This document shows, piece by piece, positions 1,185 to 44,329 of a stretch of DNA of 64,000 bases; positions within the stretch are counted from its first letter, which is position 1; each line of letters opens with the position of its first letter. The notes beneath the pieces were generated by a model that saw nothing but the letters and a program-made list of their open reading frames with translations, made no database searches and was not told the DNA's origin. Both the position numbers and the translations under genes were made by a program. This DNA is from a bacterium (GTDB lineage: Bacteria; UBA10199; 2-02-FULL-44-16; JAAZCA01), in NCBI GenBank assembly GCA_963674695.2, contig CAXXGI010000002.1, positions 384,001 to 448,000 of the forward strand, read 5' to 3'.

Positions 1185-3779
1185 ATGATGTCCGAGTGCC
1201 ATTGCTCCAATTGGATCATTCTTAAATTTGGCGGTACCAGTGTCACCTCCCGTGCATGTTGGGAGACGATCGCTGGTGTCGCACGCCAGCGCCTGGCCGA
1301 GGGTCTGCGTCCGGTCATCGTCTGTTCGGCGCTCGCCGGTGTCTCCGATCAGCTCGAATGTCTCATCGCGGAAGCGCTCGTCGGGCGGCAGGAGCCGGTG
1401 CTTGCTCAGCTCATCGAACGGCATCTCTCCTTCGCGCGCGAGTTGGGCGTGGAGGAATCGATCGTGCAGGAACCGCTCGATGCGCTGGGGCGAATCGCCC
1501 AGGGCATGGCGCTCACGCGCGAGGTGAGCCCAAAGCTCAAGGCGCAGGTGATGTCGCAGGGAGAGTTGCTCTCCACACGCCTGGGCGCAGCCTTTCTGAA
1601 ACAGCAGGGCCTTGCGTCCGACTGGCGCGATGCGCGCGAACTCATCGGTGCGAGCGAGATGGTCGGCAGCGAACAGCGCCGCTATCTGGCGGCTTCCTGT
1701 GCCACCGATACGGATGAAGGGCTTGCCGCTGCACTCGAAGGTTCGGGAGAGGGTGTGGTCGTCACGCAGGGCTTCATCGCGGCCAACGCCCAGGGCGAGA
1801 CGGTCCTGCTCGGCCGGGGTGGGTCGGACATCAGCGCGGCCGTCTTCGCCACGAAGCTCGGGGCGACCCGCTGCGAGATCTGGACCGATGTGCCGGGGCT
1901 CTTCACCGCCGATCCGCGCCGCATTCCGCAGGCGCGGCTATTGCTCCACCTGGGCTATGACGAGGCGCAGGAGATCGCGTCGTTCGGGGCAAAGGTGTTA
2001 CACCCGAAGACGATTGCACCGCTCAAGCGTCACGATATCCCGATCGTCATTCGCTGGATGGAGCGGCCCGACTTTTCCGGAACCGTTATCTCTGCGGATG
2101 CCACGGCCAGCGAGGCGCAGGTCAAGGCGATCTCGGCCAAGCGCGGAATCACCGTCGTCTCGATGGAGACGGTCGAGATGTGGCATCAGGTGGGTTTCCT
2201 CGCGCAGGTCTTCGATTGTTTTCGGCAACACGGACTCTCGGTCGATCTGGTTTCGAGCTCCGAGACCAACATCACCGTCACCATCGACAACCTCGCCAAT
2301 GCGCTCGATCCCGAATCAGTTCGCGCTCTCGTGGCGGACCTCAAGCGTTTCTGCCAGCCGCGTGTCGTGGACAACTGCGCGATGGTCAGCCTTGTCGGTC
2401 GGCATATTCGTTCCATCCTTCATGAGGTCGGGCCGGCGCTCGCGGTCTTTGCCGAGCAGCGCATCTATATGCTCTCGCAGGCGGCCAACGACTTGAACCT
2501 CACCTGCGTGGTTGACGAGGATCAGGCAACGCCGCTCGCAGCTGAACTGCACGCAAAACTCTTCGGTGGTCGCGGCGAGGATGGGCTCTTGGGTCCCTCC
2601 TGGCAGGAACTCTTCGAGCCGTGCCCAAAGCCGGCTGCACCCATGCGGCAAGCATGGTGGCGCCATCGTGCCGATGAACTCATCGCGCTGGCCCACCAGG
2701 AGAGCCCGCGCTACGTCTATGATGCGGCGGATATCTCTGCGGCGATCGAACGCCTCCAGGGCCTGCGCTCGATCGACCGGATCTTCTATTCGGTGAAGGC
2801 GAACAACTGTCCCGATGTGCTGGAGTTGATCGAGCAGAAAGGGATTGGATTCGAATGTGTCTCCGCGGCTGAGATCGATCTGATCATCGAGTGCTTTCCC
2901 GGCATCGATGTCCGGCGCATGCTCTTTACGCCCAACTTCGTTGGGCGCGCCGAATATGAACGGGCCTTTGCCATCGGCACTTGGGTGACCCTCGACAACC
3001 TCTATCCGCTCGAGGCGTGGCCCGATCTCTTCCGCGGCCGCGATATCTTTGTGCGCCTCGATCCGGGAAAGGGTCGTGGACATCACGAATACGTGCATAC
3101 CGCAGGCACGAAGAGCAAGTTCGGCATTCCGCCCATGCAGTTCGACGCGTTGGAAGAGGCGGTCCGCAGAAGCGGTGCGCATGTGGTGGGCCTGCATGCA
3201 CACGTGGGGAGCAATATTCACGAACCGGAGACCTGGTCCGAGGTGGCGCTCTTCCTGGCGCATGCGGCCGAGCGTTTTCCCGATGTGTCGGTTCTCGATA
3301 TGGGCGGAGGGCTTGGCGTAATCGAGCAGTCGGGACAGTCGGCGCTCGATCTGGCGAAGGTGGATGAAGCGCTGGCCGCCGTGCGTCGCGTGTATCCGCG
3401 CTTCGCGTTCTGGGTAGAGCCTGGGCGATATATCGTGGCCGAGTCTGGGGTGTTGCTCGCGCGCGTGACACAGACCAAGCACAAGGGCGAGCAATTCTAT
3501 GTCGGCGTCGATGCGGGGATGAACGCGCTCATTCGCCCCGCGCTCTATGGGGCGCATCATGAAATCGTCAATCTCTCGCGTCTGAATGAAACGCCCAATT
3601 GCGTGGCTACCGTGGTGGGCCCGATCTGCGAATCCGGCGATATTCTTGGGTATGAACGGACGATGCCCACGCCGCAGGAGGGGGACGTGCTGCTCGTCGC
3701 GGCGACGGGCGCCTATGGGCGGGTGATGAGTTCGACCTACAATCGGCGCGCGCTCGTGTCGGAATATCTGCTGACGTAG
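1185..3779 (+). CDS. Bifunctional aspartate kinase / diaminopimelate decarboxylase
   Basis: N-terminal LKFGGTS and LGRGGSD kinase motifs plus ACT region. C-terminal YSVKAN (PLP Lys), HAHVGS, DMGGG, EPGRY, GPICESGD and GAYG. Confidence 0.95.
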   Translation: MMSECHCSNWIILKFGGTSVTSRACWETIAGVARQRLAEGLRPVIVCSALAGVSDQLECLIAEALVGRQEPVLAQLIERHLSFARELGVEESIVQEPLDALGRIAQGMALTREVSPKLKAQVMSQGELLSTRLGAAFLKQQGLASDWRDARELIGASEMVGSEQRRYLAASCATDTDEGLAAALEGSGEGVVVTQGFIAANAQGETVLLGRGGSDISAAVFATKLGATRCEIWTDVPGLFTADPRRIPQARLLLHLGYDEAQEIASFGAKVLHPKTIAPLKRHDIPIVIRWMERPDFSGTVISADATASEAQVKAISAKRGITVVSMETVEMWHQVGFLAQVFDCFRQHGLSVDLVSSSETNITVTIDNLANALDPESVRALVADLKRFCQPRVVDNCAMVSLVGRHIRSILHEVGPALAVFAEQRIYMLSQAANDLNLTCVVDEDQATPLAAELHAKLFGGRGEDGLLGPSWQELFEPCPKPAAPMRQAWWRHRADELIALAHQESPRYVYDAADISAAIERLQGLRSIDRIFYSVKANNCPDVLELIEQKGIGFECVSAAEIDLIIECFPGIDVRRMLFTPNFVGRAEYERAFAIGTWVTLDNLYPLEAWPDLFRGRDIFVRLDPGKGRGHHEYVHTAGTKSKFGIPPMQFDALEEAVRRSGAHVVGLHAHVGSNIHEPETWSEVALFLAHAAERFPDVSVLDMGGGLGVIEQSGQSALDLAKVDEALAAVRRVYPRFAFWVEPGRYIVAESGVLLARVTQTKHKGEQFYVGVDAGMNALIRPALYGAHHEIVNLSRLNETPNCVATVVGPICESGDILGYERTMPTPQEGDVLLVAATGAYGRVMSSTYNRRALVSEYLLT

Positions 3780-34933: not shown

Positions 34934-37900
34934 TTACGATTGTTTGCGCATCTCCTCGAGGAGCTGCTCGACCATCGGATGGTACTTCTGGGGGAGTTTG
35001 GTGAAGAGGCGATCGGTCGTGTTCGCCTCGAGATGACGGCGGGCGGTGGCCAGGTAATCGGCGATCTTCGTGCGCAGGCGTTTTTCGATCTCCGGCGTTC
35101 GGTCCGGGCCGGCGAGTTGGGCGATGCTCGCTTCGATCTCCCACGCATTGCGTTCGAGAGCGGCGTAGACCATGCCGCGAAAGCGGTTGGTCATCGCCTT
35201 TGATCCGGTCGCATAGCCCAGTGCACGCTCCGCATGTGTGATGTTGAAGCGGTGTTTTCGCAGCGCGGCCAGTTCGCGTTGCTCCTCCGCGTCGAAGATC
35301 GCCTCGCCCGCTGCTGCCCCCGCGCTCACCTCCGAGGGGTTTCGTCGTGCGCCCTCGCGGATGACCCCATCGATATGGTTGACCGCGATCGTGTCGCTCT
35401 TTTCAAAGCGAGCTCGATCGAAGGCCTGGTCGATCGTGCCCATCAGTTCGCTCACGTTGTAGCGGTCGAACGGGCAGCGCGCGAGCAGATGCATCGTTTC
35501 CGCGGTGAATCCGATATGATGATCATGAGAGGCATTGCGCCGCGCCAAAAAATGCGCGGCCAGCATCTCGATGTCTTCACTGCGCTGGGCCAGTGCCGGA
35601 ACCGAAACGACGCCGCGTGCTTGGATGCGGCGCAGGAGATCTGCGCGCATGCGTCCGGAATGCACGAGGTTTTCCAACGGTTCGTTGGTGGCGAAGAGAA
35701 AGCGGACGTTGACGGTGCGCGCGGCCCCGCGTCCGGCCGCGGGGTTGAAGGGACGCCCCTCCAAGGGTAGCAGCAGGAGTTGCTGCGCTTGCATCGGGAT
35801 GAGTTCCACCTCGTCGAGGAAGAGCGTGCCTCCGTCGAACTCCTCGAGGATGCCCGGCTGTCCCCGGCGGTCTATGCCGGCGATGCCGCTGCCCTCACCA
35901 TAGCCGAAGAGTTTGCCCAACACGATGAGGGGATCGCCCGAGGCGAACTCGGCACAGTTGAATTCGCCCATCGGTTTGTCAGCGCGCGGGCTGAGCGCAT
36001 GGATGACGCGTGCAACGCCGGTCTTGCCCGACCCGGTCGGGCCGACGATGACCACCGGCGCGCGGTCGTGTGCGCGGATGGCTGCATCGCGCAGGCATCG
36101 CAGCCACGACGGGCTCGATCCCATGGCCTGCGTCAGGCGCAGGTGGCGAAACGCTTCGTTCTCCCGCTCCATCGTCTGAATGCGATCGGCCAGCTCCTGC
36201 GTGACGATCGGATCCCATCGGTCGTGGTGCAACACGTCGGAAGCGGCCAGGCCGATCAGTTCCTGGCGCTGCACGATGTCGCGCCCGAGGCGTTCGATCG
36301 CATCGGCGACGGGTTTGATCTCGATATCGGACGGACCGATTGCGGTCGTTTCACCCTCGCGAATGTTCTCCACTGCTTCAGTGAGGATGCGCACCGGTTT
36401 GGCAAAGCGATACTTGAGGAAGATGGCGATGAGGCCGCCGGTGAGGAGGACGGCGACCATCGTGATGATGTCGGTGACGATGGTGCGCCGGATGGTCTCC
36501 TGTATGGGGGTCAGCGAGATGCCCATCTGCAGGGTAGCCATCTGCCGGTCCTTCAGAATGATGGGATCGACGACGGAGACGATGTTGCGGTCGGTGGTGT
36601 CGAAGGTGCCGTAGCGCACGCGGTTGACGACCGACTCCCCCACCTCGCGGGGATCGCTCGAGGCGAAGACCTTGCCGGTTCGGTAGATGCGCGCCCAGGT
36701 CACCGCCTCGTCCTGCACCGCCGACTTGAGAATGGCATCGAGCGAGCGCGATGATTCGGAGATGAGCGCGGCCGCGACGCGGATGTTGAGTTTTTCGATT
36801 TCAACCGTCTTGCGCGAGACAAAGGCATCCATGGTGGCAAAAAAATTGACCAGCTGCACCGTGGTGAGCAGGGCGGCAAAGACGGCCACGAGCGCGGCGG
36901 TGGTGAGTCCCGTCATAAAGGCGATGCCGCGCCGGGCCAGCAGGGCCATGACCGCCAGCAGCAGGATGAGAGCCCCGCGGGTGCAGGCCATCCAGAGCAG
37001 GGCGTTGTGTTTGGCCGTGGTGACGCGTTCGCCGAAGATGGTCGGAACGTGGCGGTAGGGGGTCACAAATGTCAGCGGCGTCAGATGCGCTGCGATCTGC
37101 GCATAGGTGCGGATGGCGTCGTAGGCGCTCTCCTCCTGAATGAAGAACTCTTCGATGTCCATCATCTGTCGGATCTCGGCGGACATCGCCTCATGAAAGC
37201 GCAGCAGGGCTTCCTGTGTCTTGCGAGCGATCTCTGGATCGAAGTCGCTGCGTACGGTGATGGGCCCCATCGGAATCGGTTTTGATGTGGCGATGACGCG
37301 GAATAATCGGCGCTGCTGGGGAGGAAGCGTCTTCAGGATGAAATCGCCGATGCCGATGATGTCGACGGCCCCCTCGCGCAGGGCCTCGAGCGACCGGTCG
37401 TGTGATCCGGTCAGGACGATCCGATTGAAAAAGTCATTGGGGTTGTCGATGCCGTTTTCCAGCATGAGCACGCGCGGGATGAGATAGCCGGAGGTGGAGA
37501 GCTCATCGACGAGGGCGAGGCGCTTCCCCCAGGCGTCGACGATGGTTTCGATGTCGTCATTCTCCCGTACGACGAAGATGCTGTGGTAGCTCTTGCGCCC
37601 CCGCCGAATCTCCGATGCCAGGATCCCGGCTTTTCCCGTCTCCATCGCGGTGATGTGCGAGAGCGCTCCGCCCTCGAACATGTCCAGTTCCCCGCAGGCG
37701 AGGGCGTCGATGATGTCGCGATAGTCCTGCATCAGGACGAGTTCGAAGGGGGTGCCCACCTCGCGGGAGAGGTAATCGATCAGGGGAGACCAGGTCTTCA
37801 CGGCCTTTTCGATCGAACGTCCGCTCATCAGCCCGAACCGGACGGTGTTGGCCTCCACCGAAGAGGATGTGGCGGCGATGCCGACGATGATGAGGGAGAG

Positions 37901-37939
37901 GAGCAGGATATGGCGGAGGAGACGCATCGAGGCCATCAT
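34934..37939 (-). CDS. Membrane-anchored regulator: PhnD-like binding domain + TMs + HAMP + sigma-54-type AAA+ domain + HTH
   Basis: PhnD motifs (YHSIFVVR, DELSTSGYLIP, GSHD); Walker A GPTGSGKT; FNCA; Walker B GGTLFLDEV; RADLLRR. GAFTGA is replaced by GSGIAG. Confidence 0.8.
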   Translation of the reverse strand: MMASMRLLRHILLLSLIIVGIAATSSSVEANTVRFGLMSGRSIEKAVKTWSPLIDYLSREVGTPFELVLMQDYRDIIDALACGELDMFEGGALSHITAMETGKAGILASEIRRGRKSYHSIFVVRENDDIETIVDAWGKRLALVDELSTSGYLIPRVLMLENGIDNPNDFFNRIVLTGSHDRSLEALREGAVDIIGIGDFILKTLPPQQRRLFRVIATSKPIPMGPITVRSDFDPEIARKTQEALLRFHEAMSAEIRQMMDIEEFFIQEESAYDAIRTYAQIAAHLTPLTFVTPYRHVPTIFGERVTTAKHNALLWMACTRGALILLLAVMALLARRGIAFMTGLTTAALVAVFAALLTTVQLVNFFATMDAFVSRKTVEIEKLNIRVAAALISESSRSLDAILKSAVQDEAVTWARIYRTGKVFASSDPREVGESVVNRVRYGTFDTTDRNIVSVVDPIILKDRQMATLQMGISLTPIQETIRRTIVTDIITMVAVLLTGGLIAIFLKYRFAKPVRILTEAVENIREGETTAIGPSDIEIKPVADAIERLGRDIVQRQELIGLAASDVLHHDRWDPIVTQELADRIQTMERENEAFRHLRLTQAMGSSPSWLRCLRDAAIRAHDRAPVVIVGPTGSGKTGVARVIHALSPRADKPMGEFNCAEFASGDPLIVLGKLFGYGEGSGIAGIDRRGQPGILEEFDGGTLFLDEVELIPMQAQQLLLLPLEGRPFNPAAGRGAARTVNVRFLFATNEPLENLVHSGRMRADLLRRIQARGVVSVPALAQRSEDIEMLAAHFLARRNASHDHHIGFTAETMHLLARCPFDRYNVSELMGTIDQAFDRARFEKSDTIAVNHIDGVIREGARRNPSEVSAGAAAGEAIFDAEEQRELAALRKHRFNITHAERALGYATGSKAMTNRFRGMVYAALERNAWEIEASIAQLAGPDRTPEIEKRLRTKIADYLATARRHLEANTTDRLFTKLPQKYHPMVEQLLEEMRKQS

Positions 37940-38048: not shown

Positions 38049-39281
38049 TTACAGATGCTGCACGCTCCCGCCATATTCACGGGCATTGCACTCCTGCAGC
38101 CGCTGGTGCGCCGGCTTGAAAAAGACGTTGAGGAGGGTGACCGCGAAGAGCAGGAGCGCGAAGATGGTCGCCAGCGCAAACCCATAGAATTCATCGCCCA
38201 GGCCGTCGCTGGTGGCGTTGATGGCCAACGGGCCGACGGTTGCAGAGGCGCAGGTGAAAAAGAGGATGATGCCCGCGATCGAGCCGTGCCGGTCGATCGG
38301 GAAGCAGCACATCCCCTTCGAGTTGATCGTCGGATAGATGATCGACATGAAGAAGCCGGATATCGGCAGCAGCATCGTTGCCGGCCAGACTCCGCCGATC
38401 ATGCTCACCACGAAGCAGAGCAGCACGCCGAAGCTGGAAATGGCCAGCAGCATCGCCCAATCGAAGCGGGCCAGGAGCGCTGCGCCCACGAACCGTCCCA
38501 GCGTGCGGAAGACGTTGAACAGGACCAGGGCATAGATCGCCATGAGGTCGTTTTCGCCGCGAGCGATGATGATGAGCGGCATCCAGACATACACCGAGCA
38601 CTCGACCGTGACGTAGAGGAATGCGGCGAGCGAAAACCCGAGCGCATACCGGTCTTTGAGTAGCGCGAATGCCGTGCCGAGCGTGGCGGCTTTTCCGGCG
38701 CTTTCCCGTCCCCGGCGCGAGATGACGGCGGTGGATAGGGCCAGCGCCGCAATCGATATGCCGGCCGCGCAGACGTAGAGCCACTTCCAGCTCGTTCCGC
38801 GCAGGAGCATGAGGGAGACCAGCGCCGGCCCGATGATCGAGCCGATGCCGAAGAAGCCCTCGACGGCGTTCATGATCACCGTGTGGGAGGTGACCGAGGT
38901 GGCAATGCGGCTGATCAGGACGAGCACGCCTGTCTTGAAGATGGCGATGGCCACGCCCGAGGCGATGAGCAGCGCCAGGATGAACCAGTAGTTCTGGGCG
39001 AGGGGAAAGAGGAGGGAGGCGATCGCGAACAGGGCCAGGCCCGCGATGACGACGAAGCGGCAGCCGAGGCGATCGGCCAGCCAGCCCAGAAAGAGCGCCC
39101 CGATCGCGATGGCGGCCATGGTGACATAGTGGAAGGAGCCCGCCCGCGCGAGCGTGATGCCGAATTCCTCGACCAACAGCGGCATGATCACCCCCACCGC
39201 ATTGGTCGTCATCGCGAACATCAGGAAGATCAGGCAGATGATGCAGGTGATGGCGGCGGTGTTTGAGCTCTCTTCATGCAT
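38049..39281 (-). CDS. MFS transporter (fucose/glucose/galactose permease-like)
   Basis: GWLADRLG, AFLYVTVE, SIIYPTI motifs. Confidence 0.85.
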   Translation of the reverse strand: MHEESSNTAAITCIICLIFLMFAMTTNAVGVIMPLLVEEFGITLARAGSFHYVTMAAIAIGALFLGWLADRLGCRFVVIAGLALFAIASLLFPLAQNYWFILALLIASGVAIAIFKTGVLVLISRIATSVTSHTVIMNAVEGFFGIGSIIGPALVSLMLLRGTSWKWLYVCAAGISIAALALSTAVISRRGRESAGKAATLGTAFALLKDRYALGFSLAAFLYVTVECSVYVWMPLIIIARGENDLMAIYALVLFNVFRTLGRFVGAALLARFDWAMLLAISSFGVLLCFVVSMIGGVWPATMLLPISGFFMSIIYPTINSKGMCCFPIDRHGSIAGIILFFTCASATVGPLAINATSDGLGDEFYGFALATIFALLLFAVTLLNVFFKPAHQRLQECNAREYGGSVQHL

Positions 39282-39545
39282 ATGAACCCTCCGAGGATAG
39301 TGACGAGGTACAATTCTCTATAATGAGTCTCCGCAAACAATTGCAAGTTTCTTGCCACCTAACGAAATGGGCCCAATCCCCCTTTTGGGACATCCCCCCG
39401 CATCGGGGAGGGGCCGAAGACACGGTTCTTGAGCATTCCATCTTCTGCCGGACACAGCCGGGACACAGCGCTCTCCCCTGAAGCCCAGACGAATATATTA
39501 AAGAGAATCGCGCCATTACAGCAATTCGGCGCAAGTCGTATAACT

Positions 39546-39561
39546 TGGCACGCGAATTGCT
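39546..39561 (+). promoter_or_regulatory. Sigma-54 promoter
   Basis: TGGCACGCGAATTGCT matches the consensus TGGCACG-N4-TTGCW, immediately upstream of the radical SAM gene. Confidence 0.8.
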
Positions 39562-39574
39562 TTGGGAGGGTTGC

Positions 39575-40792
39575 ATGATGAATCAAGGATTGAACAATGC
39601 CTACCGGGGAAGTCAGAAGAAGGACTTTCTGAAAGGGCTCTTACAGGAGACCCGGCTCAATGTCATCGTTACCGTGACGCGCAGCTGTGTGCTCCGGTGC
39701 AGATACTGCTATGCGACTGACCCCGGATGTGAGGGTCGAGGAATCATCAGCGATCATCTCCTGGAAAAGATCATTCGCGATGCCAACGAGACGCGCCACG
39801 ACTCCATCGTCTTTGAGTGGACCGGTGGCGAGGTCCTGTTGGCGGGACGAATGTTTTTCGAACGAGTCCTTGAGCTGCAACGACGCTACATGACCAAGCC
39901 CCATGAAAACAGCGTTCAGACCAGCGGGGCCCTCTACGATGAGGAACTCTATCGGTTCCTAATCGGAAATGGTTTTTCGGTTTCGGTGACGCTCGATGGT
40001 CCACGTGCATTGCACGATGCACAGCGTCCCTATGCGGATGGGCGAGGGAGCTTCGAAACGGTCATGCAGTCGGTGCATCTGCTCAAGCAATTGCAGGGCG
40101 AGTGCGGTGTTCTCTGCACGGTGACGCGCGCATCGCTGCCGTATCTCCGGGCGCTCACGCAGTTTTACCGTCAAGAGGGTATGAGAAAGTGGCACGCCAA
40201 TCCCTATATCTTTGATGCGAATAAACCGGTCGGCGAAGAACAGCTCGGCCTGACGGCATCCGAATACGCGGAGACGATGGAAACGTTTTTTGAGGATTGG
40301 ATTGCATGCGACGATGAGTGCTTGTGTCAGCGCAATGTGACTCAGGCCATCGAAGCCCTGATGGCATTCGATCACACAAGCGTGTGTACGAACAGCGGTC
40401 GGTGTCTCACCAACTTCGTCAACATCTCTCCATCGGGGCGGGCCTATCCCTGCCCCAAGTTTTTGGGCGATGAACGGTTTCAGCTTGGGCAGGTTGATAG
40501 GGATCATCTCGCGCAGATCACCTCCCCTGACAATCCGGTCATGGACCAGCTCATAGACGATCGCATGCGTGCGATCAATCGGTGCATCGATCGGGGTTGT
40601 CCGTTCCTCGGAGCATGCAACGGTGGGTGCCCCTATGCTTCGCTGTTGTCCGGAAATGACGGACGCACCGATCACGTTGATGCCACCTGTGAGGGAAGAC
40701 AGCAATTTCTATCGCAGGTCGATGCCTCTATTCGAAGCCACGGTGGTTGGACGACGGTTCAAGGGAATGTGGACCATGAAGAATTGGCATAA
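39575..40792 (+). CDS. Radical SAM/SPASM domain protein, putative peptide maturase
   Basis: CVLRCRYC (CxxxCxxC), WTGGEVLL, SVTLDGP; SPASM cysteines CTNSGRC, YPC, CIDRGCPFLGACNGGC and TC. Confidence 0.92.
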   Translation: MMNQGLNNAYRGSQKKDFLKGLLQETRLNVIVTVTRSCVLRCRYCYATDPGCEGRGIISDHLLEKIIRDANETRHDSIVFEWTGGEVLLAGRMFFERVLELQRRYMTKPHENSVQTSGALYDEELYRFLIGNGFSVSVTLDGPRALHDAQRPYADGRGSFETVMQSVHLLKQLQGECGVLCTVTRASLPYLRALTQFYRQEGMRKWHANPYIFDANKPVGEEQLGLTASEYAETMETFFEDWIACDDECLCQRNVTQAIEALMAFDHTSVCTNSGRCLTNFVNISPSGRAYPCPKFLGDERFQLGQVDRDHLAQITSPDNPVMDQLIDDRMRAINRCIDRGCPFLGACNGGCPYASLLSGNDGRTDHVDATCEGRQQFLSQVDASIRSHGGWTTVQGNVDHEELA

Positions 40793-40839
40793 CGAGTGAG
40801 AGAAAACGTCACTCACAACCAAGTGAAAGGAGCAATACG

Positions 40840-41151
40840 ATGAAGATCAAAACGAAAGAGGGTGAGAAGAAAACGGTACAGCAGGAAAAGGCAGCATGTC
40901 AGTCGGTGGCCGTAAAGGATAAAGCCGAGCAGAAGACGAATGTCCCGTCGAACTCAGACGTATACCAGAGCTCAAATTCGGTTCTGCAGAAGATGGTGAA
41001 GCTGCAGCGGGAAAGCTGTGGGACAGAAGTGAATCAGACGGAGACGATGGTCGCAAAACGTCAGTGTCCATCGGGCACGACCCACAGCAATGCGTATCAA
41101 AGATGCGGTCCCAACCTGTGCTGTGTCTGTCATGGGGATACGTGTAAGTAG
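40840..41151 (+). CDS. Putative RiPP precursor peptide (103 aa, Cys-rich C-terminal core)
   Basis: AAGGAG RBS; starts 47 bp after the rSAM stop; hydrophilic leader; core QCPSGTTHSNAYQRCGPNLCCVCHGDTCK. Confidence 0.75.
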   Translation: MKIKTKEGEKKTVQQEKAACQSVAVKDKAEQKTNVPSNSDVYQSSNSVLQKMVKLQRESCGTEVNQTETMVAKRQCPSGTTHSNAYQRCGPNLCCVCHGDTCK

Positions 41152-41218
41152 TTGGTGGATATCCGAAAGCGTGACCGCTGAACGTATATAATTCCATGGG
41201 GGAACAAAGGAGGAATCC

Positions 41219-42502
41219 ATGGGTGGTTTATCACAGGTCGATCTGGGAGGTCTGTGCAAAGCCTTTGAAGTGATGGGTGAGGATGGGTCGGGGCAGAGCT
41301 ATGCGCATCGGATCTGCGACACGCTGGACCTGACGCAGGGGAGCTATTCGCCTTATCTCTATCGCGACTCCTATGGGGATGGAATGGTTCGCGTTCCGAC
41401 CTATGAGGCCATCGGCGGTCGTCGGCAGATTTCAGAGCATCGCTATTTGACCGAATCGGGCGCGATCATGGGCGGGCCCGCTCGCGATCGCTGGGAGGCG
41501 GGGCGTGTCGATTCGACGATCGCGCGCTATTTCATCGCGGCGGCCTTCGGCATCGAGGAACTGACCGATCGCGTCGGGATCGATCTGGGGCTCGTAAAGT
41601 ACCTTCGATCGCTCACCGGGATCTGTGCGAACAATCCGAGCGGCTGCCTTCAGGGGTCCACCGCTTCGCGCACGAAGCAGAAATGGGGCGCGGTCAAACA
41701 GGAGCAGGCGCGCGTCGCAGGGGAGCGCACGCGTCTGGAAGCGCGCCGCCGCGAGGTGCAACAGATCGCGCAGGGCTATCGTTACATCGAGGTGCGGGTG
41801 CAGGCAAAAGATGACCTGCTCGTGAAGACCGCGCACTGGCGCGATCAGCTTGTCACCGATCCGAAGACGTTTGCCGAGTGCGATCGCGCCATCGCGCTCT
41901 ACACGGAGATGATTGCCGTAGCGCAGGCGATGCTCGATCGCGAAAACACCAGCGGTCGTGATCAATGGATGCGCGATCAGATCGCGATGTATCGGACAAA
42001 GATTCCGCAGCAGCGAAAGACGTTCATAGAGGCGGAGCGCAAGCGCCGCGTGACCTCCGGCTTCATCCTCGTGCACAACTACGATAAGTTCTCCGATCCG
42101 ATGGAGAAGGCCGACGCCTGCTTCGAGAAGGTTACTCCTCAAGGCCTGAAACAGCAGTACTGCGCGCTCAAGAATCAGAGCATGATGATCGCAGGTCTGC
42201 ATCGGAAGATGGATAATTATCCGGAGAAGGATGTCTGCTTACGACACGGAGCGCCGCGCGAAAAGAGCTGTACGAGTTCGGATAGAAACCAATGGGGCTG
42301 CACCTGCAAGACGGTTTCAGCCAATCCATATTCAATAGGGAGCGGATGGAGTCACACGGTCTGCGAAGGGACCTATACCTATACGCCGTGTCTGGAATCA
42401 GGAACGAAGGGCAAGGACTACACCGACGACGAACTCATCTCCGGCGCACAGTGGATGTGCTCACAGGCCACGAGCTGTTCCGTCGAATACATCGGGCATT
42501 GA
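41219..42502 (+). CDS. Hypothetical protein with coiled-coil middle and Cys-rich C-terminus
   Basis: AGGAGG RBS, 427-aa ORF, TATAAT upstream; no recognised family. Confidence 0.7.
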   Translation: MGGLSQVDLGGLCKAFEVMGEDGSGQSYAHRICDTLDLTQGSYSPYLYRDSYGDGMVRVPTYEAIGGRRQISEHRYLTESGAIMGGPARDRWEAGRVDSTIARYFIAAAFGIEELTDRVGIDLGLVKYLRSLTGICANNPSGCLQGSTASRTKQKWGAVKQEQARVAGERTRLEARRREVQQIAQGYRYIEVRVQAKDDLLVKTAHWRDQLVTDPKTFAECDRAIALYTEMIAVAQAMLDRENTSGRDQWMRDQIAMYRTKIPQQRKTFIEAERKRRVTSGFILVHNYDKFSDPMEKADACFEKVTPQGLKQQYCALKNQSMMIAGLHRKMDNYPEKDVCLRHGAPREKSCTSSDRNQWGCTCKTVSANPYSIGSGWSHTVCEGTYTYTPCLESGTKGKDYTDDELISGAQWMCSQATSCSVEYIGH

Positions 42503-42540
42503 ATCGAAAAACGAGAACACACAAGGGAAAGGGGTTGGAT

Positions 42541-43623
42541 ATGGCATTGGGAACGATCATCATCGGTGCGGCGGCGATCGCGGCGGCCATCTGGGGAAGC
42601 GGCTGTGGCGAGCGCGTGCCACTGAAAAAGGAAGAGAAGGATCCGTGTGACAGCGTCGATTGCTCCGGGCACGGGACGTGCATTCCCATCGAGGACCGTT
42701 TCGTCTGTCACTGCGACCGCGGCTACTTCGATGAAGGGGCGCAGTGTCTGCCGGATGAAATCTCCGACGGGGATTTTGATGCGGATTCCGTTGAAAATGA
42801 TACGGATGCGGAGGATGTGGAAGCGGAAACGGAGATCGCTGATGCCGATGGGGAGGATGACGATCAGTTCGAAGAGGAGGATGTGCCGCGTAATCCCTAT
42901 TGCGCAACGCAATATTGTTTGAATGCCACCTCCTATTTCTGTGAATCGAAACTCGGCGACAAGGTCATCGAGTGTGTCGAGGAGGAGTATTGCGATGAGG
43001 GCATGTGTGTCCTGCGCCCCGATGAGGAGGACCCGAACTGTGCTCCCGGCATGCGTTCGGCCTGTGAGGTGACGGATGAATTTGATATTCCGATGTTGGG
43101 AGCGGCGGATCAGAGTCAGAGTCGAAGCCATGCCTATTCCGTTGTCGGATGCTGGCACTCATCGGCATTTCAACTCGATGGACAATATCAGTGTTCCGAC
43201 GATGCCGCCGATGTCCTCAAGGGAATGTACTACATCGGACAGGAGGGGGCGATCGTCGAGAGTTGGATGGCGATGACGATGCAGGTCATCCCCCCGCCGG
43301 AAAAGAGCTTCTATCGCGTCGATGCAAAGATGGATTGGATGACCATCTATCCGGATGCTTGCGACGAAAACTATCCGCCGGCGTTGATGACCTTTTTTGG
43401 GGATGAGCAGTCATCCCTTCTCTCCTATGAGGAATCGTGGAAACGCTGTTTGTATCAGACCGTGGGGGAATTTTCGGCGGCAGGAATCGATGGAGATGCG
43501 GTTCGTCTGCGTTTTCAAAACCATGGCGACAACTGTGATGGACGCAACATTCAGATCAACGGTCTGGCCATCGCGCGCACACGCATCTGGAGCTGCGAGT
43601 GCGTGGAGGATCCGGGGCGCTGA
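42541..43623 (+). CDS. Cys-rich lipoprotein with EGF-like domain
   Basis: Lipobox-like WGSGC; CDSVDCSGHGTCIPIEDRFVCHCDRGYFDEGAQC has EGF six-Cys spacing; acidic linker. Confidence 0.75.
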   Translation: MALGTIIIGAAAIAAAIWGSGCGERVPLKKEEKDPCDSVDCSGHGTCIPIEDRFVCHCDRGYFDEGAQCLPDEISDGDFDADSVENDTDAEDVEAETEIADADGEDDDQFEEEDVPRNPYCATQYCLNATSYFCESKLGDKVIECVEEEYCDEGMCVLRPDEEDPNCAPGMRSACEVTDEFDIPMLGAADQSQSRSHAYSVVGCWHSSAFQLDGQYQCSDDAADVLKGMYYIGQEGAIVESWMAMTMQVIPPPEKSFYRVDAKMDWMTIYPDACDENYPPALMTFFGDEQSSLLSYEESWKRCLYQTVGEFSAAGIDGDAVRLRFQNHGDNCDGRNIQINGLAIARTRIWSCECVEDPGR

Positions 43624-43641
43624 TCTGCAGACATCATCCAC

Positions 43642-43671
43642 AAAAAAGCCCCCGCTTTCGCGGGGGCTTTT
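43642..43671. terminator. Bidirectional rho-independent terminator
   Basis: AAAAAAGCCCCCGC-TTTC-GCGGGGGCTTTT between convergent genes. Confidence 0.85.
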
Positions 43672-43707
43672 GATTGTTAACAAAAGCAAAGTCAGATCGC
43701 TTTTGTT

Positions 43708-43790
43708 CCCTCCCCTTTGTAAGGGGAGGGTTAGGGTGGGGTAGATCCGAGATCTACCTCCCCCGTCCCCTCCTTACAAAGGAGGGGGGA
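43708..43790. repeat. REP-like doublet of a second family
   Basis: CCCTCCCCTTTGTAAGGGGAGGG ... CCCCTCCTTACAAAGGAGGGG inverted pair around a GTAGATC/GATCTAC stem. Confidence 0.7.
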
Positions 43791-43795
43791 GGATT

Positions 43796-44329
43796 CTATT
43801 CACCCTGCCAGGTTGCGATCGAGACTGGCATCTGGTTCGTGGCGAGCGTGCCGATCATGCAGACCTTGACCTGCTCGACATCCGGACGGCCTTCGACGCG
43901 ACAGTCTTCGATGGAGCAGATGGAGACATTCCAGGATCCATTTTCATTTTCCTTCGGTTCGATTGCCGGAACCTCAGGGGCCTGTCCCATGGCGGGGACA
44001 TAGACGAAGGTCACCTGGACGGATTCGTCGAATTCGATCTCCTCGTCCTTTTCCGCCGGGGTCAGCACGATCTCTTCGGCGGCTGCGGTTATCTGGCCTT
44101 TGACCTTGTCGCTGGAAACGTTCCAGCCATCAGGAAAATTGAGTCCCATCTCACTGCAGGCCTTCACAACGAAATCGGCCGGCGCGGGTGCTGGAGCGGC
44201 GACATCTTCGGTGACACCGGTGGCGAGTTCTCCCTCGGTGTCGGTCTCATCCGTCGTCATCTTCGTGCAGGCGCCCACGGTGAACGCCAACGCGAGGATG
44301 AGCAGCATGTTGAGCATCGATTTCTTCAT
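43796..44329 (-). CDS. Hypothetical lipoprotein
   Basis: MKKSMLNMLLILALAFTVGAC lipobox; GAGGAAG RBS. Confidence 0.75.
   Translation of the reverse strand: MKKSMLNMLLILALAFTVGACTKMTTDETDTEGELATGVTEDVAAPAPAPADFVVKACSEMGLNFPDGWNVSSDKVKGQITAAAEEIVLTPAEKDEEIEFDESVQVTFVYVPAMGQAPEVPAIEPKENENGSWNVSICSIEDCRVEGRPDVEQVKVCMIGTLATNQMPVSIATWQGE

Follow-up and report, generated by a model that had tools for sequence, protein, structure and literature searches.

A 64,000-nucleotide stretch of a bacterial contig (CAXXGI010000002.1, positions 384,001 to 448,000; "the window" below means this whole stretch) encodes a 405-residue radical S-adenosylmethionine (SAM)/SPASM maturase together with a 103-residue cysteine-rich peptide. 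We propose, with a probability of about 0.55, that the two form an enzyme-substrate pair that would carry out triceptide-like crosslinking of His to a C-beta atom, and that they belong to a family of cassettes whose peptides carry repeated His-x-Asn/Asp triplets. Computation here supports the genes with their motifs, the association across the family, the promoter and the absence of a sulfatase from the genome; binding, chemistry, regulator and the role of the product are inferred. The cassette comprises the following elements:

39546..39561, forward strand: sigma-54 promoter with -24 and -12 elements, TGGCAC-N5-TTGC-T (match to the consensus TGGCAC-N5-TTGC at 39546-39560; rpoN in the genome)
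39575..40792, forward strand: 405-aa radical SAM/SPASM maturase from a family without a name, placed between the anaerobic sulfatase-maturating enzymes (anSME) and DynA (Pfam, NCBIfam, alignment and tree)
39686..39709, forward strand: CxxxCxxC radical SAM cluster motif, C38, C42 and C45 (24-member alignment)
40385..40690, forward strand: SPASM region, in which eight Cys from C271 to C372 are conserved (24-member alignment; weak PF13186 match)
40826..40832, forward strand: AAAGGAG, ribosome-binding site of the peptide gene, 7 nt ahead of its ATG (sequence)
40840..41151, forward strand: candidate precursor peptide, 103 aa, with a hydrophilic leader and a Cys-rich C-terminal core (coding score; leader alignment with loci L005, L006 and L027; weak complex support)
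40975..40995, forward strand: leader motif N46-S-V-L-Q-K-M52, resembling N-E-V-I/V-x-R/K-I/L (alignment; a hidden Markov model (HMM) pairs "ksnevikrl" with "SSNSVLQKM")
41083..41091, forward strand: first His-x-Asn/Asp triplet, His82-Ser-Asn84 (sequence)
41131..41139, forward strand: second His-x-Asn/Asp triplet, His98-Gly-Asp100, within CCVCHGDTCK (sequence)

The original prediction, made from the letters of the window, had singled out a consensus sigma-54 promoter, a radical SAM enzyme of ~405 aa with a full SPASM Cys set and an early CxxxCxxC motif leaving no room for an N-terminal recognition element (RRE) for RiPPs (ribosomally made peptides with post-translational modifications), and a 103-aa open reading frame (ORF) with its own ribosome-binding site 47 bp downstream; all of these were recovered. 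The maturase begins at an ATG at 39575, preceded by GGGAGGG, and its stop codon ends at 40792, which leaves 47 bp to the peptide ATG at 40840. Pfam detects a Radical_SAM domain (52.6 bits) and a weak SPASM match (PF13186), and the three Cys of the CxxxCxxC motif and the eight Cys of the SPASM region (C271, C277, C293, C337, C342, C348, C352 and C372) are invariant or nearly so among 24 aligned family members. The eight would be enough for two auxiliary 4Fe-4S clusters. In the other 23 aligned members, 70 columns are conserved at 90% or more; the window enzyme deviates at four of these and agrees at 66 (eight other family members given the same test deviate at 0-7), so it is probably active and uses the chemistry of its family.

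Comparison with models of known maturases, which had been named in advance as a check, places the enzyme below every NCBIfam cut-off. The best models are anSME (TIGR03942, 184.5 bits; cut-off 349.45) and DynA (NF041298, 172 bits; cut-off 450), and all further peptide-maturase models score lower than these two; the same two rank first and second for all 24 aligned family members, where the best anSME E-value is 7e-64 and the scores again stay under the cut-off. Among the named models of three-residue cyclophane-forming enzymes, GrrM/OscB (TIGR04261) gives 88.7, AmcB (NF041718) 81.2, YhhB (NF041707) 70.4 and FxsB (TIGR04269) 65.7 bits, with cut-offs of 310 to 445. PapB (116 bits; cut-off 340), SCIFF (70 bits; cut-off 425) and HxsB (TIGR03978, 92.4 bits; cut-off 370) likewise fall short, the best match by sequence in the PDB is an anSME (115 bits), and the PADLOC defence models return only a generic radical SAM similarity to viperins.

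A search of 5.8 billion clustered proteins returned about 25 relatives of the maturase at 34-48% identity, with the nearest enzymes (P0002 and P0004) at 45-48%, followed by a drop to ~30%, where anSME-annotated proteins begin. Pattern scans of species genomes yielded 21 loci and those of metagenomes 52, to which a genome belonging to the same taxonomic family added one more. The family analysis covers 59 loci, window included, defined by a tblastn match at E<=1e-40; the entry for the window itself (L001), the paralogues in its own genome (L002-L004) and weak or partial matches (L025, L026, L065-L078) were left out of the locus count. When the small ORFs beside these homologues were collected, as the original prediction had suggested, 54 of the 59 loci proved to have an adjacent same-strand small ORF with at least two H-x-[ND] triplets, and the other five (L048, L056, L057, L058 and L059) lie on cut contigs, where the side expected to hold a precursor has no more than 406 bp (upstream) or 26 bp (downstream) of sequence. 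An all-against-all BLASTP comparison of neighbours showed that, of the genes beside the enzyme, only the peptide gene recurs from locus to locus (in 44 of them, with 6 in the next cluster). It lies upstream of the radical SAM gene in 50 loci and downstream in four, namely the window, L005, L006 and L027. In a tree built by a quick method, which has one artefactual row (L028, branch length 10), the enzymes of these four form a basal grade, the upstream-type clade has a Shimodaira-Hasegawa-like approximate likelihood ratio test (SH-aLRT) value of 99, and the family separates from anSME-like proteins with an SH-aLRT of 91. The window maturase sits on a long terminal branch (1.1).

Record labels assign the family members to Bacteroidales, Chlorobiales, Elusimicrobiales, Deltaproteobacteria (Myxococcota in the origin column of the tree), Rhizomicrobium and the small phylum of this genome; the family is sporadically distributed and without a name. 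No description of a His-x-Asn/Asp radical SAM family was found in the literature searched, a set outside which the main triceptide survey and its supplements lie. A triceptide sequence network of about 3900 pathways has reportedly been presented by Sugiyama et al. in 2022, and the family enzymes may already stand in an uncharacterised cluster of some published network. In the passages considered, a paper on RiPP mining in Bacteroidales makes no mention of the family (PMC10352776).

The substrate rule emerges from the 46 distinct partner peptides other than that of the window, in which 380 of 436 His (87%) have Asn or Asp at +2, against an overall Asn-plus-Asp content of 18-23%. At the other offsets from -3 to +4 this content is 4-18%, except at -2, where it reaches 49% because the repeat has a four-residue period. 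Position 2 of the triplet is mostly Thr, Ser, Gly, Val or Ala, and each of these precursors carries 4-12 triplets. Most are 115-160 aa long with a signal-peptide-like N-terminus: a hydrophobic segment with a conserved LGIAIPA-like motif is present at the N-terminus in 38 of 43 distinct peptides of the upstream type. As the peptides of L051 and L064 retain KKLGIxxP without the hydrophobic tail, this segment may be a recognition element besides, or in place of, a signal peptide. The leader element of the upstream-type precursors reads N-E-V-I/V-x-R/K-I/L. NCBIfam models gave no match for the four partner peptides tested, and of 30 relatives of one Bacteroidales precursor none is named and none has a Pfam domain. 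On this point the original prediction, which had described a Cys/His/Tyr-rich tail with a core of no recognisable class, has to be replaced: what marks the family is repeated His-x-Asn/Asp triplets, a probable variant of triceptide logic.

Cys makes up just 2.1% of the last 60 residues of family cores. Cys-rich cores do occur in the family, since the second precursor of L054 combines a normal leader with such a core, in which all eight His, read by eye, fall in H-x-D/N triplets within CCPHCD and CPHCDCH. That locus (L054:751-1602) has two tandem precursor genes upstream of a radical SAM frame that is split in two, the second being the Cys-rich one (CCPHCD...CPHCDCH). At L006 (7458-7865), a tail of ~110 aa of the radical SAM ORF overlaps the start of the downstream peptide ORF, with QPRQSQVSNLY in both translations, which may reflect an assembly frameshift or a duplication.

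Several observations favour the peptide of the window as the substrate. Its frame has the top codon score of the six (0.355 bits/codon, vs 0.352 for the radical SAM gene). It contains just two His, both in the motif (HSN at 82-84, HGD at 98-100) with the typical Ser and Gly at position 2. It lies downstream of the radical SAM gene, as at the three nearest loci with flanks (L005, L006 and L027), and its gene order, 47-bp spacing and ribosome-binding site match those loci. The leader aligns with their peptides over [VL]-[LVI]-[QK]-[KRE]-[ML]-x-x-[LW]-Q-[RK], and all four share a hydrophobic-hydrophobic-Ala stretch right before the core. A complex prediction for the enzyme and the 103-aa peptide scored 0.39 (runs 0.49, 0.39 and 0.15) against 0.02 for the best control, with a predicted local distance difference test score (pLDDT) of 43-46 for the partner and at least 22% of contacts agreeing between runs. 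This lends weak support: in the calibration, 58 of 80 solved complexes pass the mark, as do 2 of 110 mismatches, a yardstick that applies only roughly to a run with its own alignment and riding ligands, and passes at or below 0.60 are oftener wrong than right unless the pairing is already likely. The proposed tie to the family precursors is built on four things: position, the short leader resemblance, the placement of both His in the motif and the weak complex prediction. The peptide also has eight Cys, of which the last 28 residues hold six, and it has neither a hydrophobic N-terminal segment nor a signal peptide.

Several results weigh against the proposed reading. The peptide has two triplets where the other 46 precursors have 4-12, and it has no detectable homologue, matching only itself in 5.8 billion clustered proteins (word-indexed search) and 1.84 billion representatives (phmmer); the ESM Atlas gave no usable match either. 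A family HMM built without the window ranks its ORF second of the 40,797 ORFs of the genome, at 8.8 bits and an E-value of 5.5, which is suggestive but not significant alone. With an HMM made from three downstream-type peptides it comes on line 52 of the hit table (5.4 bits, E 56), again without significance. A likeness of the core to a "DPNVT...HGDSCRY" subgroup, seen by eye, was dropped: an HMM of 12 such precursors does not list the window ORF. At the level of the enzyme, the anSME and DynA models (184 and 172 bits) outscore those of the named cyclophane synthases (66-89 bits), and in the PDB the triceptide synthase ChlB is matched weakly (36 bits vs 115 for anSME). For every family member, moreover, the case for His-x-Asn/Asp chemistry is made from sequence and analogy. 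The earlier claim that the neighbouring peptide is the substrate therefore stands in part: an adjacent H-x-[ND] peptide recurs at 54 of the 59 loci, whereas homology of the window ORF to these precursors is statistically unsupported. The window peptide is an outlier of the family, an atypical Cys-rich version.

The radical SAM/SPASM enzymes HaaB, YhhB and HtkB join C2 of His to C-beta of residue 3 on HAA, HNR and HTK, motifs that are often repeated, with a change of -2 Da; the triceptide rule is omega1-X2-X3, in which omega1 is aromatic and His is allowed (PMC11499958). The present family likewise places a radical SAM/SPASM maturase beside a precursor with three-residue, aromatic-first motifs, an arrangement of enzyme and omega1-X2-X3 precursor found at 54 of the 59 loci and, as HSN and HGD, in the window. 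It differs in that residue 3 is Asn or Asp in 87% of triplets, in that its precursors are mostly 115-160 aa with a signal-peptide-like N-terminus, and in being known from genes alone. With DynA the family enzymes share the lack of an RRE and an anSME-like size, and DynA is the second-best model for every member; the 172-bit score stands against a cut-off of 450 bits, and the dynobactin precursor is short and single-core rather than a His-x-Asn/Asp repeat protein. Dynobactin crosslinks go to C-beta. The dynobactin core is WNSNVHSYRF, with Trp/Asn and His-x-Tyr units (PMC10125368). In the HXS antiphage system, radical SAM enzymes mature HxsA, a signal-peptide-bearing His-x-Ser repeat protein that acts in the periplasm and blocks entry of phage DNA, and install a +8 Da change on the His-x-Ser repeats with no 2 Da loss (PMC13128918). 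As with HxsA and its partners HxsB, HxsC and HxsD, our family pairs a radical SAM enzyme with a small His-x-X repeat protein, and the hydrophobic N-terminus of 38 of 43 upstream-type precursors recalls that of HxsA; it has no conserved second radical SAM enzyme (HxsC) or HxsD-like gene, and residue 3 is Asn/Asp where HxsA has Ser. The window peptide, unlike HxsA, has no signal peptide.

The 1,3 pairing of the family is that of the omega1-X2-X3 rule, with HaaB, YhhB and HtkB as precedent, and we therefore suggest that the enzyme takes a hydrogen from C-beta and closes the ring onto His. The RRE-less enzyme would bind the peptide at the leader element N-x-V-[ILV]-x-[KR]-[ILM], which a hydrophobic-hydrophobic-Ala strand follows. 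SAM would be cleaved to a 5'-deoxyadenosyl radical that takes a hydrogen from C-beta of the position-3 Asn/Asp, and the resulting carbon radical would join the imidazole of the position-1 His, most likely at C2 and possibly at N, with an auxiliary cluster accepting the electron. The outcome would be a three-residue ring and -2 Da per motif. In the window peptide this would give two rings, His82-Ser-Asn84 and His98-Gly-Asp100, in a core with six Cys besides, and expression would be sigma-54-dependent, probably via the adjacent enhancer-binding protein (EBP) with a PhnD domain.

Another explanation is that the enzyme is an anSME, the top NCBIfam model and the top PDB match alike. It is highly implausible: the score is far under the 349-bit cut-off, the 100%-complete genome offers just two partial matches to the sulfatase family (PF00884; ~21 bits) and thus no true sulfatase, no protein of the genome reaches the anSME cut-off, and the conserved partner that the family tracks is a His-x-Asn/Asp peptide. 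On the score, the missing sulfatase and the absence of any protein at the cut-off we set this role aside, in line with the doubt already voiced in the original prediction; what the enzyme does share with anSME (PDB 4K36-4K39 for the solved structures) is a SPASM domain holding two auxiliary clusters, along with the lack of an RRE. It is also unlikely that the 103-aa ORF is no substrate at all, the enzyme being an orphan after loss of its His-x-Asn/Asp precursor or having a target encoded elsewhere. The orphan status of the peptide, its non-significant homology tests and its two triplets would fit such a history. Yet no other small ORF of the genome resembles a family precursor (the top HMM matches are weak; among ORFs of at most 160 aa, 11 have at least four triplets and were not inspected singly), the gene order, spacing and ribosome-binding site agree with the nearest loci, the coding score equals that of the enzyme gene, the conserved residues of the enzyme are intact, and the complex prediction leans weakly towards a pairing.

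If the peptide is the substrate, the bond itself could differ. The triplets might be modified without a C-C ring from His to C-beta, either by a link from a His nitrogen to C-beta or by a change to Asn/Asp only, such as epimerisation or dehydrogenation. The His-Ser-Tyr ring of dynobactin has a His-N to C-beta link, and DynA is the runner-up model for all 24 aligned family members. The HXS system, too, puts +8 Da and not -2 Da on its His-x-Ser repeats (PMC13128918). Against this possibility, which we hold to be improbable, the strict pairing of His at 1 with Asn/Asp at 3 is the pattern expected of a 1-to-3 crosslink and fits the omega1-X2-X3 rule (PMC11499958). Slightly less probable are Cys-based bonds, namely a sacti- or ranthipeptide-like thioether or a link from Asn C-beta to Cys S, with the window branch having changed its chemistry along with its core. 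PapB-type enzymes follow a rule of CX3D spacing, and no such spacing surrounds Asp100. Cys is so rare in family cores that the conserved chemistry cannot depend on it, the PapB and SCIFF scores (116 and 70 bits), which lend this view some colour, are below the cut-offs of those maturases, and the window enzyme keeps its 66 of 70 conserved columns. The six Cys in the last 28 residues, which include an N-L-C-C (NxxC) stretch, and the long terminal branch of the enzyme speak for it, as does the precedent of NxxcB, a radical SAM enzyme that makes an Asn-C-beta to Cys-S link (PMC11851443), and we still consider it quite unlikely. The same low likelihood applies to a combined scheme, in which the window pair would be a neofunctionalised offshoot that retains the C-beta radical chemistry and forms His-to-C-beta rings at HSN and HGD together with Cys-S-to-C-beta or disulfide bridges on an orphan Cys-rich core, related to the family by its leader only, produced intracellularly without a signal peptide and standing under sigma-54 control by a periplasmic PhnD-like sensor; were it true, it would add a new scaffold to the RiPPs, governed by an unusual switch that depends on a signal. 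The preferred reading remains that of an enzyme-substrate pair with triceptide-like His-to-C-beta crosslinks.

The regulation of the cassette can be approached through its promoter and two further elements of the window:

39450..39469, forward strand: direct tandem repeat GGACACAGC, two copies (family D3) 11 bp apart, ~80-95 bp upstream of the promoter
34934..37939, reverse strand: sigma-54 EBP, 1001 aa, with an N-terminal PhnD-like periplasmic binding domain (Pfam and NCBIfam matches)

The genome contains 39 TGGCAC-N5-TTGC sites against ~7 expected from base composition (own arithmetic), so that the match at 39546 is unlikely to have arisen by chance. A GG-N10-GC promoter, an rpoN gene (448 bits, above its cut-off) and a nearby EBP (PF00158, 116 bits), the marks of a sigma-54-dependent operon, are all present at the level of sequence. 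As the -12 element ends 14 nt before the maturase ATG, the predicted transcript start lies past the Shine-Dalgarno sequence, and the mRNA of the cassette should be near-leaderless. The orthologous locus L005 has an equivalent consensus sigma-54 promoter 15 nt 5' of the ATG in the same layout, L027 has a one-mismatch version ~55 nt upstream, and the same inspection of the upstream region found no such promoter at L006. The GGACACAGC pair is a candidate enhancer site (upstream activating sequence), and the 1001-aa EBP, 1.6 kb from the promoter, is by its adjacency a candidate regulator of the cassette. Elsewhere in the genome, two near-identical genes beginning MAYLPRREIVYDGVSFH (G000:C1:749673 and C3:280050) have a sigma-54 consensus ~15 nt before the ATG, the same near-leaderless layout. 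Immediately upstream of a second radical SAM/SPASM-like gene, also outside the window (G000:C2:699203-700576; L003/L082; 587-aa frame, anSME model score 99 bits), there is likewise a consensus sigma-54 promoter.

The cassette is flanked by the following genes:

38049..39281, reverse strand: major facilitator superfamily (MFS) transporter, divergent from the cassette (family match; an orthologue without the cassette in genome G010)
41219..43623, forward strand: two downstream genes, one for a 427-aa protein that falls in no family and one for an EGF-like lipoprotein (outside the conserved cassette)

No protease or ABC exporter adjoins the cassette among the window neighbours, as the original prediction had remarked. 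No terminator was found after the peptide gene, where the fold is no better than that of shuffled sequences (z -0.27), and in the all-against-all BLASTP no neighbour in the window matches a neighbour at any other locus. The 427-aa protein has a paralogue elsewhere in the genome and homologues in genomes G004 and G012, in which a search with the window enzyme found no radical SAM homologue at E<=1e-30. Because this protein and the MFS transporter occur elsewhere without the radical SAM gene and the neighbours are not conserved, the conserved unit consists of two genes. A third gene after the peptide is common to L005 (275-1126, reverse strand) and L027 (2116-2628), encoding 283 aa with a faint DUF483 match; it has no counterpart in the window and is unlike the 427-aa protein (E 0.14). 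The GC content at third codon positions is 0.63-0.71 for the cassette and the next two genes vs 0.81-0.88 for the MFS and EBP genes, and the overall GC content of 39300-43700 is also lower than that of these flanking genes. A DNA search did not find this block in 20 related genomes, except for the MFS gene in G010 and part of the radical SAM gene in G007, and its origin may be horizontal. The relevance to the cassette of its neighbours, namely the EBP, the MFS transporter and the downstream genes, is uncertain.

Three features lie apart from the cassette. Past the lipoprotein gene, in the interval before its next neighbour (43701-43800), lies a ~85-bp palindromic repeat, of which many copies at 80-97% identity occur on both strands of this and related genomes; it has the look of a repetitive extragenic palindrome or a miniature inverted-repeat transposable element (REP/MITE-type). 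An 864-aa ORF at 1185-3779 (forward strand) combines an amino-acid kinase domain, with ACT, and an Orn/DAP/Arg decarboxylase domain, and looks like an aspartokinase-decarboxylase fusion. Outside the window, a giant gene (G000:C2:526726) has an open frame of 12,813 aa.

If the proposed pairing is true, the cassettes would represent a radical SAM/SPASM maturase family with its own substrate rule, His-x-Asn/Asp, and would widen the scope of triceptide-type chemistry, at position 3, to residues with acidic and amide side chains, in a minimal two-gene system that is simple to test. Most members look exported and are not short peptides, which raises the question of what role a His-rich protein with multiple staples would have outside the cell; our guesses are metal binding or a function at the envelope similar to that of HxsA. 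The copy in the window, the oddest member, would show how far substrate cores drift.

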